This document shows, piece after piece, positions 52,110 through 54,565 of a stretch of 64,000 nucleotides of DNA. How positions within the stretch are numbered: position 1 is the stretch's first letter; each line of letters starts with the position of its first letter. Origin of the DNA: a virus (lineage: Duplodnaviria; Caudoviricetes). The stretch lies in IMG/VR virus record IMGVR_UViG_3300024346_000005; one strand, given 5' to 3'. Under the pieces are notes generated by a model. That model was not told the DNA's origin. It was given only the letters and a program-made list of their open reading frames with translations, and searched no databases. The position numbers and the translations under genes are program-made.

Positions 52110-54565
52110 ATGACTGCTACAATTGCTCAACAACGTTCCACAAATACTTGGAACGATTTCTGTGAGTGGATTACTTCCACTAACAACCGTCTATATGTTG
52201 GTTGGTTCGGAGTCCTTATGATTCCTTGCCTTCTTGCTGCTACGGTTTGCTTCATTATCGCTTTCGTTGGTGCTCCCCCAGTGGACATTGACGGCATTCG
52301 TGAACCAGTTGCCGGTTCTCTAATGTATGGAAACAACATCATCTCCGGTGCCGTTGTTCCTTCTTCTAATGCGATTGGTCTTCACTTCTATCCTATCTGG
52401 GAAGCTGCCTCACTTGATGAGTGGCTTTATAACGGTGGACCTTTCCAACTTGTTGTATTTCACTTCCTCATTGGCATCTATGCTTATATGGGTCGTGAAT
52501 GGGAACTTTCTTACCGTCTAGGTATGCGTCCTTGGATTTGTGTTGCTTACTCAGCACCTGTTGCTGCTGCGAGTGCCGTATTCCTTGTGTATCCTTTCGG
52601 TCAAGGTTCTTTCTCTGATGCTATGCCTTTGGGCATTTCTGGTACTTTTAACTATATGCTTGTCTTCCAGGCAGAACATAACATCCTTATGCATCCCTTT
52701 CATATGTTAGGTGTTGCTGGTGTTTTTGGAGGAAGTCTTTTCTCCGCAATGCATAGGGAACTGTGCCCTTGTTGAGTAATCAGCAAGTGAAAATCGGGTG
52801 AACTGCTGGAACCCTAAGTTACTAAAATGTTACTTGACTTATATAAATAACTCTGGTAACATAAACTGTATGACTAATCAGTACTTATCTTTTATTGAGG
52901 AATGTAAATCAAAAACATATCCTCCCAATACTTATCTTGAAGAACACCATATTGTCCCAAAACACGATGGTGGTCTTGATAATCCAGAAAACCTTATTTC
53001 ATTATCTTTTGACGACCACATACTCGCACATAAAATAAGGTACGATGTATACGGTCAAGTTTATGACTTAGCAGCATATAACTTGATGTGTGGTTTTGAT
53101 AGTGAAGGTTGGAGACTTCTTAGAGTTGAAGGTGCCTATAAAACACACGAAGCACTAAGATTATCCAAGAAAAACTTTTGGAGTTCTGATTATCAAAAAG
53201 AAATGTCTGCTCGTTCTGTAAAGTCTGAGTATGCTATGAAAATGAGAAGTATTGGTGGTAAAGTGGGAGGTAAAAATAGGAACAAAAATGTTGCTATTAC
53301 TTCTACTGATAAGTATATTTTCTCTTATACTAAAGTTGAAACAGTTTGTATAATAAACTGTGAAACTGGTGGAGAAGTTTTAGAAGAACTACAAAAAATA
53401 GTTCCCAATCAAAACTTCAAGAGGGTAACACCTCTACTAAAAGGACAAAGAGAAAATGCTTATGGTTGGTCTTGTAAAAAAGTTTAGTAATACGGCAATC
53501 AGCATCCAAGTCCTAGATACATCTAGGAAAGGTTCAGAGACTACCTGAGGGATATAGTTCCCTTAATAACAGGTTTAAGTGCCCGACAACCTAATAAAAA
53601 TAGGTTGATGATATAGTCCACTCCTTATGAAAATAAGGTACAATAGGGGTTCCCTCGTAACCTCTTCACTGGTTCGTGAAACCACTGAAACTGAATCGCA
53701 GAATTATGGTTATAAGTTCGGACAAGAAGAAGAGACATACAACATCGTTGCCGCTCATGGTTATTTTGGACGCCTTATTTTTCAATATGCTTCGTTTAAT
53801 AACTCTAGGTCGCTTCATTTCTTTCTTGCTGCATGGCCGGTTGTAGGCATCTGGTTCACCGCTCTTGGTGTTTCCACGATGGCTTTTAACCTCAATTGGG
53901 GTTCCGTTAAAGCAATTTAACGGCAAACATCGGATGAATTGCTGGAAACCCTCCAAATATAAGGGCAATCAGCATCCAAGTCTTGAGTACACTCAAGAAA
54001 GGTTCAGAGACTACCTGAGGGATATAGTTCCCTTAATAACAGGAATAAGCGTCCGACATCCTACTGGGATGAAGATATAGTCCTCTCCTTAAAGATGGTA
54101 AATTTAAGGAAACAGAGTAATGGTTTTAATTTTAACCAGTCCATCGTTGATAGTCAAAACCGAGTAATTCCTACTTGGGCGGACATTTTAAATCGTGCTG
54201 GTCTCGGCCTTGAGGTCATGCATGAACGGAACGCTAGATTTGTTGGTGTTCTTGCCTAGTAATAGGCATTAGTAAAATCGGGTTAAACGGGGAAACTCTC
54301 TATGAGACAATCCCGTACCAAGTCAGAAAGGGTTAAAGTTTTCTGAAAGGTCTAACGACTAGGTGGTGAGTCCCAACAATAATCCACCCACGAATGCCCG
54401 ACTCCTTAATAAACATAAGGATGAAGAGATAGTCTGAACTTACTAGCGATAGTAAGAAGTAGAGGATAAAGAACCACTACGATAACACAATTGCACAACT
54501 TTCCTTTAGATTTGGCGGCTGCAGAAACAACTTCGGTTGCTCTAACTGCTCCTTCTATTGGTTGA
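52110..54565 (+). CDS. psbA: photosystem II D1 protein; join(52110..52754,53648..53892,54118..54235,54494..54565), 359 aa
   Basis: The four exons total 1080 nt and splice in frame to a complete D1 (AMH|GSL, FNL|NGF with the Leu codon split CT|T, RNA|HNFPLDLA). Confidence 0.97.
52755..53647 (+). mobile_element. group I intron 1 (893 nt, after His215) carrying an HNH ORF
   Basis: P1 GCAT|AG-GGAA-CTGTGC with U.G at the splice site; P10 AGGGAACT/GGTTCCCT; P, Q, R (GTTCAGAGACTA) and S (GATATAGTCC); terminal G. Confidence 0.92.
52870..53487 (+). CDS. intron-encoded HNH homing endonuclease
   Basis: [14 protein letters not shown]...NL......H..AH; TATAAATA at 52842. Confidence 0.85.
   Translation: MTNQYLSFIEECKSKTYPPNTYLEEHHIVPKHDGGLDNPENLISLSFDDHILAHKIRYDVYGQVYDLAAYNLMCGFDSEGWRLLRVEGAYKTHEALRLSKKNFWSSDYQKEMSARSVKSEYAMKMRSIGGKVGGKNRNKNVAITSTDKYIFSYTKVETVCIINCETGGEVLEELQKIVPNQNFKRVTPLLKGQRENAYGWSCKKV
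53893..54117 (+). mobile_element. group I intron 2 (225 nt, inside the Leu297 codon), no ORF
   Basis: P1 AACCT|C-AATT-GGGGTT with U.G; core closely matches intron 1; ends ...ACAGAG. Confidence 0.92.
54236..54493 (+). mobile_element. group I intron 3 (258 nt, after Ala336), no ORF
   Basis: P1 AACGCT|A paired with TGGTGTT (U.G); P AAACGGGGAA, Q AATCCCGTAC, R GTCTAACGACTA, S GAGATAGTC; terminal G. Confidence 0.92.

Follow-up and report, generated by a model that had tools for sequence, protein, structure and literature searches.

How did two introns of a single gene come to share an almost identical catalytic core while carrying different guide sequences? The question is raised by the psbA gene at positions 52110-54565 (plus strand) of a 64,000-nucleotide (nt) stretch of DNA, referred to here as the window, from the IMG/VR virus record IMGVR_UViG_3300024346_000005 (Duplodnaviria; Caudoviricetes), the source of which is a T4-like marine cyanophage. 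Among the auxiliary metabolic genes of cyanophages, psbA is the best known, and it is often used as a marker. In the window, its reading frame is interrupted three times by group I introns. A first-pass annotation, made from the sequence alone, had noticed that the first two of these (I1 and I2) are closely alike in their cores, and had proposed either that one of them was transposed to a new site in the same gene by reverse splicing or that gene conversion homogenises the two cores. We consider it probable that the psbA introns are modular, and that lineages homing at the DNA level, together with recurrent conversion of a middle cassette, keep their cores alike.

Anatomy of introns 1 and 2

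When the exons at 52110-52754, 53648-53892, 54118-54235 and 54494-54565 are joined, they encode a D1 protein of 359 amino acids (aa) with zero internal stops. Exon 1 comprises codons 1-215, exon 2 (245 nt) was placed by spliced alignment, and exons 3 and 4, the latter including the stop codon, follow from the spliced D1 product; the layout is also backed by tblastn and by spliced alignment against other phage psbA genes. At all three junctions, the last base of the exon is T and the last base of the intron is G. I1 (52755-53647, 893 nt) lies after nt 645 of the coding sequence (CDS), and I2 (53893-54117, 225 nt), which has no open reading frame (ORF), lies after nt 890; like the gene, the introns, exons, repeat copies and intron ORF of the window and the nuclease gene 3′ of psbA are on the plus strand, and intron sites are given as the CDS nucleotide that they follow.

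With the Rfam group I model RF00028 (threshold, 50 bits), I2 scored 88 bits (E 4e-21). The 3′ half of I1 alone scored 44.1 bits, its 5′ half being split off by a 205-codon ORF (52870-53487) that lies in the P5 loop and encodes a putative homing endonuclease of 205 aa with an HNH motif (Pfam PF01844, 25 bits against a cut-off of 21.4). An ORF-less orthologue of I1 (L028:1192-1426), with 97% core identity to I1, scored 89.5 bits, and the conserved P3-P8 core that the model describes for group I introns is present in both lineages. Intact orthologues of the HNH ORF occur in contigs L017, L022 and L030. In one DNA run and two RNA runs, an ORF-less allele of I1 was found in which window positions 52819-53490 are replaced by about 9 nt; therefore, the HNH gene is polymorphic in the population.

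The pairings can be assigned in parallel in the two introns. In I1, P1 is formed by 52751-52756/52761-52766, P2 by 52768-52775/52780-52787 and P3 by 52794-52800/53579-53586; the corresponding strands in I2 are 53888-53893/53898-53903, 53904-53911/53916-53923 and 53930-53936/54049-54056. P1 and P2 of both introns fold as predicted, and in each case P1 pairs with the intron's own 5′ exon, with a U·G pair at the 5′ splice junction, as the first-pass annotation had led us to expect. Read from the sequence, the P10 pairing with the intron's own 3′ exon amounts to 7 bp in I1 and 4 bp in I2, and the exon U in the U·G pair of P1, the intron-final G and P10 are all in place at the splice sites. Across an alignment of the intron family described below, P3, P6, P7.1 and P8 covary. 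The Rfam alignment places a 30-nt insert after the 5′ strand of P7, which folds as a hairpin and covaries family-wide (columns 148-165). This extra helix between P7 and P3′ (P7.1/P7.2), a mark of IA-type phage introns, is present in both I1 and I2. The introns of the window may well be self-splicing.

A shared core with unrelated ends

A repeat search detected a direct repeat of 100 nt with 87% identity, one copy of which lies in I1 (53494-53593) and the other in I2 (53964-54063), 470 nt apart; each copy runs through P5′-P4′-P6-P6a-J6/7-P7-P7.1-P3′. Within this repeat lies a block of 47 nt (53527-53573 and 53997-54043), assigned through the Rfam alignment to J6/7, the 5′ strand of P7 and the P7.1 hairpin, which a script found to be exactly identical in the two copies and bounded by one mismatch on each flank. 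A second exact match between the introns is a 19-mer (53494-53512 and 53964-53982). An exact repeat of 47 nt cannot reasonably be attributed to chance. The P6a hairpins (53511-53528 and 53981-53998) each fold into a 7-bp stem with a 4-nt loop, and P3 differs between I1 and I2 by a compensatory change from G-C to A-U that is part of a family-wide covariation (columns 56/184). Both the identical block and the compensatory changes in the hairpin, which we assign to P6a, and in P3 had been noticed in the first-pass annotation, and both were confirmed.

When the likeness between I1 and I2 was scored for each structural element as identical positions over the total, it proved to be patchy. The two introns are identical in P5′-P4′-P6 (18/18) and J6/7-P7-P7.1 (47/47), and they are alike in P3-P4 (19/23) and J8/7-P7′ (12/13); J-P3′ scores 11/15 and P6a 7/15, whereas P1-P2 (12/34), P5 (6/26), P8 (7/18) and the tail from P9 to the end (16/34) are unrelated. 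The earlier description of a shared core with different guides is correct at all of the coordinates that it names, and the comparison supports the view that I1 and I2 are paralogues, whose ribozyme cores are of a single type and whose guides differ, each matching its own site.

Same-site relatives of introns 1 and 2

Does this likeness reflect an event that took place in this phage? I1 is most closely related to the site-645 intron of contig L022, with which it shares 98% core identity and the same length of 893 nt, and I2 to the site-890 introns of contigs L029 and L011 (94-95% core identity), whereas the core identity between I1 and I2 is only 81-87%. L022 has no intron at site 890, and neither L029 nor L011 has one at site 645. 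Because the same-site relatives are closer and the partner intron is missing where they occur, we deduced that I1 and I2 belong to two site-specific lineages that circulate separately. The suggestion that one intron was transposed to a new site within the same gene is not supported, in view of these same-site orthologues (94-98%) in contigs without the partner and of the unrelated ends, and neither is a homogenisation of I1 and I2 private to this genome. One contig (L080) carries both introns, each 100% identical to that of the window, and may come from the same phage population.

The psbA exons of L017, L028 and L022 are 64-99% identical to those of the window, depending on the segment, and the identity is highest beside shared introns; in L017, it is 96-97% beside the shared intron and 82-88% elsewhere. 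Such peaks would fit homing with co-conversion, together with the known mosaic nature of phage psbA, and the raised exon identity near site 645 suggests co-conversion by putative HNH homing.

A family of psbA introns at many sites

The psbA intron of phages S-PM2 and S-RSM88 is 84% identical to I2 over 161 nt and carries the 47-nt block. An exact 32-nt core of the block was found in 80 contigs (29 IMG/VR viral contigs and 51 metagenome contigs), and in 80/80 of these it lies inside psbA; in an exact-match scan, the block was absent from all 185,579 prokaryote genomes. The first-pass annotation had named a block generic to the intron subgroup, with the closest relatives of each intron at unrelated loci, as an outcome that would tell against its proposal. 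The block did turn out to be generic to the family, but the relatives are not at unrelated loci, all of them being in psbA.

Introns bearing the block occupy nine psbA sites (180, 275, 556, 645, 749, 890, 997, 1001 and 1019), and when the CDS of the window was spliced onto the family loci, at least 14 intron sites were recognised in total; these positions come from a spliced nucleotide alignment, and the boundaries at 749, 997/998, 1019, 570 and 408 are taken from it as it stands. The psbA genes of L040, L034, L022/L038, L027/L039 and L044 contain between five and seven group I introns each; in L040, for example, they lie at CDS nt 180, 275, 570, 645, 749, 992 and 1019. In phage S-SRM01 (L002, MW015081), psbA is annotated as separate D1 fragments and an endonuclease, and spliced alignment gives three introns, at sites 275, 749 and 998. 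The intron ORFs are of different types: HNH ORFs are located in the P5 loop at sites 275, 318, 556 and 645, LAGLIDADG-like ORFs are located 3′ of the ribozyme core at site 180 (L010, L011, L025, L027 and L034) and site 548 (L034), and a third type is found at site 556 of L028 and site 548 of L044.

Both I1 and I2 share with the S-PM2-type introns the location in a cyanophage psbA gene and the near-identical P4′-P6-P7-P7.1 cassette; the third intron of the window (I3) does not have the block. Neither I1 nor I2 is at the S-PM2 site, which follows CDS nt 1002. We therefore regard I1 and I2 as new members, at new sites, of the known S-PM2-type family of psbA introns.

Mosaic introns and exchange of the core between sites

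Across this family, the end modules (P1-P2 and P8-P9) are site-specific and the middle is not. The site-997 intron of L020 agrees with its site-mates at the 5′ end (50/50) and at the 3′ end (50/51) but in only 70/106 positions of the middle, a stretch of 105 nt that is identical to S-PM2 throughout (105/105). A chimera of the same type was found again in L068, which comes from an independent sample (203/206). At site 548, the ends of the intron are identical between L022 and L030 (49/49 and 77/77), and the middles are of the site-645 type in L022 and of the site-318 type in L030. At site 890, the intron of L069 has the P8-P9 tail of I2 nearly unchanged, with a core of another clade that is identical to the core of a site-1008 intron.

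The distribution of single elements shows the same division. P8 is site-specific, and the P6a alleles, including those of I1 and I2, are each found at three to seven sites. The HNH ORFs at sites 275, 318, 556 and 645 are 25-30% identical to one another, and the ribozyme cores around them are 85-100% identical. Rare variants of P7.1 are common to three introns of the L044 psbA gene and to two introns of the L058 psbA gene, and elsewhere they are not found at those extra sites. Moreover, identical P6a alleles are paired within a genome 12 times as against 6.7 expected (P = 0.02, 49 profiles).

We propose that each intron consists of site-specific ends (the P1/P10 guide with P2, and P8-P9 with the tail) and a family-wide middle cassette (P3/P4, P6, J6/7, P7, P7.1 and P3′), of which the 47-nt block is the most conserved part. 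Neither I1 nor I2 would have been derived from the other within this phage. Each site lineage would have arrived or been inherited, spreading between phages by DNA-level homing, for which the HNH enzyme may be the agent at site 645 and a helper yet to be named the agent at site 890. The cores would stay near-identical through functional constraint and because family members at different sites repeatedly undergo gene conversion with one another, the crossovers falling within the conserved P3/P4 and P3′ segments. A wider form of this proposal, in which psbA introns make up a population-wide recombining pool with at least 14 sites, up to seven introns per gene, site-specific adaptor ends and a catalytic cassette exchangeable by gene conversion, has in our judgement about an even chance of being correct. 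If it is true, the ribozyme core would pass from one insertion site to another as DNA and would not depend on reverse splicing.

Several points weigh against this proposal. With the exception of S-PM2 and S-SRM01, all of the relatives are short-read metagenome assemblies, in which an assembler might conceivably thread repeats of 47-105 nt wrongly; to produce a mosaic in this way, however, it would have to switch twice in the space of about 200 nt, using common stretches only 12-23 nt long, and two mosaics were met with again in independent samples. The surplus of identical P6a alleles within genomes is driven largely by one contig, L044, and is not significant in a smaller set (22 profiles, P = 0.39). 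Several P6a alleles are just one base pair apart, and their sharing across sites may partly be convergence. Finally, I1 and I2 diverge in the sequences that border the block at either end, and no conversion tract is visible between them. Gene conversion of the cores, as put forward in the first-pass annotation, is supported at the level of the family, in the mosaics and in the rare variants shared within one psbA gene, and not in the pair of introns from which it was first suggested.

Alternative explanations

Three other explanations for the likeness between I1 and I2 have to be weighed. One is a recent transposition in this phage, in which one intron was reverse-spliced into the mRNA and its copy reverse-transcribed and recombined into psbA, after which the guide was adapted to the new exon. 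It would explain a core common to both introns beside different guides, the core tree nests the site-890 clade within the site-645 clade, and it is reverse splicing that is commonly invoked where related introns occupy different sites (PMC3984707). The findings do not, however, call for reverse splicing. The core tree is unreliable as a history, the introns being mosaics, and for the same reason it cannot name a donor. A copied intron would differ from its source mainly in a guide of 4-6 nt, whereas P1-P2, P5, P8 and the tail of I1 and I2 are unrelated; the 5′ exons, which end in GCAT and ACCT, are unable to pair with one guide; and the pair shows neither a donor guide that pairs with the new site nor a copy of the whole intron, as would be expected of reverse splicing. 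Considering in addition that each intron has its 94-98% same-site orthologue in contigs without the other, we assign only a minute probability to this course of events. Another explanation is a local concerted evolution, in which conversion between I1 and I2 within this genome keeps the copies alike. The copies are just 470 nt apart and offer 47 nt of perfect homology, and conversion within one gene appears to take place in other contigs (L044 and L058). On the other hand, most of the family has the block unchanged, so that its identity is uninformative for this pair; P6a immediately upstream of the block and J7.1/3 and P3′ immediately downstream of it differ between I1 and I2, each matching alleles of other phages; and L080, with both introns unchanged, indicates that the pair is stable in at least one other contig, perhaps of the same population. 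This explanation seems to us to have a slim chance of being correct.

The third explanation dispenses with exchange altogether: each site would have been colonised independently and long ago, strictly site-bound descent with homing would have followed, and the identity of the block would reflect purifying selection alone. This agrees with the clustering of cores mostly by site, with the site-specificity of P8 and of both end modules, and with the conservation of J6/7 and P7 in all group I introns. Yet P4 and P7.1 are free to covary, as they do in I3 and the other clade, and are nevertheless identical across nine sites. Nor does strictly site-bound descent account well for mosaic introns that match an intron at another site at 100% throughout the middle, for rare P7.1 variants common to the introns of single genes, or for HNH ORFs as divergent as those described above beside near-identical cores. 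We consider it an unlikely explanation, and prefer modular introns, in which site-bound ends are combined with a middle cassette converted between sites.

Population contigs and transcripts

Positions 52500-54600 of the window were compared with contigs from one DNA run and three RNA runs. The listed contigs of the independent DNA run (X7) tile 52790-54600 and 52500-52742 with zero differences, leaving short stretches uncovered near 52743-52789 and 53557-53559; they break off and resume within both copies of the 47-nt block. Because these contigs break inside the block, the linkage across the repeat rests on the original assembly and on L080. One RNA contig joins position 53963 back to 53494, so that P3-P5 of the I2 type are followed by a core of the I1 type; it may come from another family member or from a mosaic.

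The direct repeat would offer a built-in way for exon 2 to be lost and, perhaps, for exon skipping to occur. The first-pass annotation had predicted a deletion of exon 2 whenever the two copies recombine, which is a sound inference; among the listed contigs, which drop rare variants, there was no joint that skips the 470 nt between the blocks and none from exon 1 to exon 3.

A joint from 52754 to 53648, corresponding to the exact excision of I1, was present in two RNA runs and absent from the DNA run. Intron-less psbA alleles of other phages or hosts could produce the same joint, and for this reason it was not counted as evidence of splicing.

Intron 3 and the downstream nuclease

I3 (54236-54493, 258 nt, after CDS nt 1008) scored 63.4 bits with RF00028 and is a group I intron of another lineage. 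Its core shows 99% identity to that of the L027 intron at site 1008, and it is 78-81% identical to the introns at site 992 (L027, L011, L029 and L062 have sites 992 and 1008/1010). Its identity to the block-type introns is about 60% or less (58% for the S-PM2 type among the matches listed, with I1 and I2 below those listed). We regard I3 and its site-1008 relatives on the one side, and the site-992 introns on the other, as a second paralogous pair. Where sites 992 and 1008/1010 are both occupied, the intervening exon is just 16-18 nt long.

A free-standing gene 3′ of psbA (54654-55175) encodes a nuclease of the Endo VII type (Pfam PF02945, 78.6 bits), the product of which has 45% identity to the S-PM2 enzyme F-CphI. 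The window has no intron at the S-PM2 site (nt 1002), and I3 sits 6 nt downstream of it. I3 may protect psbA from this nuclease as the S-PM2 intron would.

Comparison with known systems

The 212-nt psbA intron of S-PM2 works with the free-standing endonuclease F-CphI in what has been termed 'collaborative homing' (PMC6083498, PMC5083919). S-PM2 and S-RSM88 have the same host gene and the same ribozyme family as the window, and share the block and the P3 allele with I2. As in S-PM2, an Endo VII gene of the F-CphI type lies directly 3′ of psbA in the window. In contrast, the single intron of S-PM2 is inserted after CDS nt 1002, where the window has none, its family members being at 645 and 890 and another intron at 1008; in addition, I1 has an HNH gene of its own, and the guide, P2, P8 and P9 are all different. 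Single endonuclease-bearing psbA introns have been reported in S-CBWM1 and S-SRM01 (PMC8557907), although for S-SRM01 the present alignment gives three introns in place of the one reported. The literature that we found thus holds one 212-nt psbA intron at one site and single endonuclease-bearing introns in two isolates, to which the window appears to add two sites. No description of multi-site spread or of natural psbA intron chimeras was found in the accessible literature, key subscription papers lying outside it, and a natural modular exchange of this kind was likewise not encountered there for phage introns. Additional psbA sites with introns may have been described in Zeng 2009.

The occurrence of related introns at different sites of one gene has been discussed mainly for ribosomal DNA (rDNA), where such group I introns have been taken as circumstantial evidence for reverse splicing (PMC3984707). 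Like the psbA family, they represent one intron lineage at several sites of one gene. psbA, however, is a phage gene that codes for a protein, its introns have unrelated end modules at different sites, and the mosaics favour recombination of DNA over insertion at the RNA level. In the phage Twort, three similar group I introns with exon skipping have been described in one gene, orf142 (Landthaler and Shub 1999, as cited in PMC3073962 and PMC11878797), and exon skipping has also been reported for phage SIOphi (PMC11878797). Twort orf142 and the psbA gene of the window are both phage protein genes with three group I introns, some of which are alike, and both have the same possibility of exon skipping. 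They differ in phage, host and gene, exon skipping has been seen in Twort, and the psbA family occupies many more sites across the population. In 1990, Bryk and Belfort reportedly obtained domain shuffling in the laboratory among the td, nrdB and sunY introns of T4, with chimeric introns and deletion of the intervening DNA. As in the deletion predicted for the window by the first-pass annotation, recombination there took place between different introns of a single phage, at their conserved core elements. The T4 products, however, were laboratory recombinants between introns of different genes, whereas the psbA chimeras are natural alleles, and no deletion product has been seen.

psbA introns should be useful as a natural system in which to ask whether introns reach new sites by an RNA- or a DNA-level route, and what role recombination between introns plays. 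They also have practical consequences, in that psbA primers and gene callers will miss or split intron-bearing genes, and assemblers will break inside the shared block.

Genomic context

Rfam places a PhotoRC-II leader upstream of psbA, and no further group I intron match was found elsewhere in the 128.5-kb phage record. The top nucleotide matches of the psbA region were psbA genes of Synechococcus myoviruses. Twelve Pseudomonas phage records match part of the query from 52000 to 54700 at ≥99% identity and are absent from the best matches listed. Elsewhere in the window, Rfam matches were obtained to the wcaG RNA (38513-38610, 96 bits) and to the abiF RNA (32505-32541, 57 bits), the latter adjoining a cluster of transfer RNA (tRNA) genes; the window contains seven tRNA genes, located at 32550-37751.

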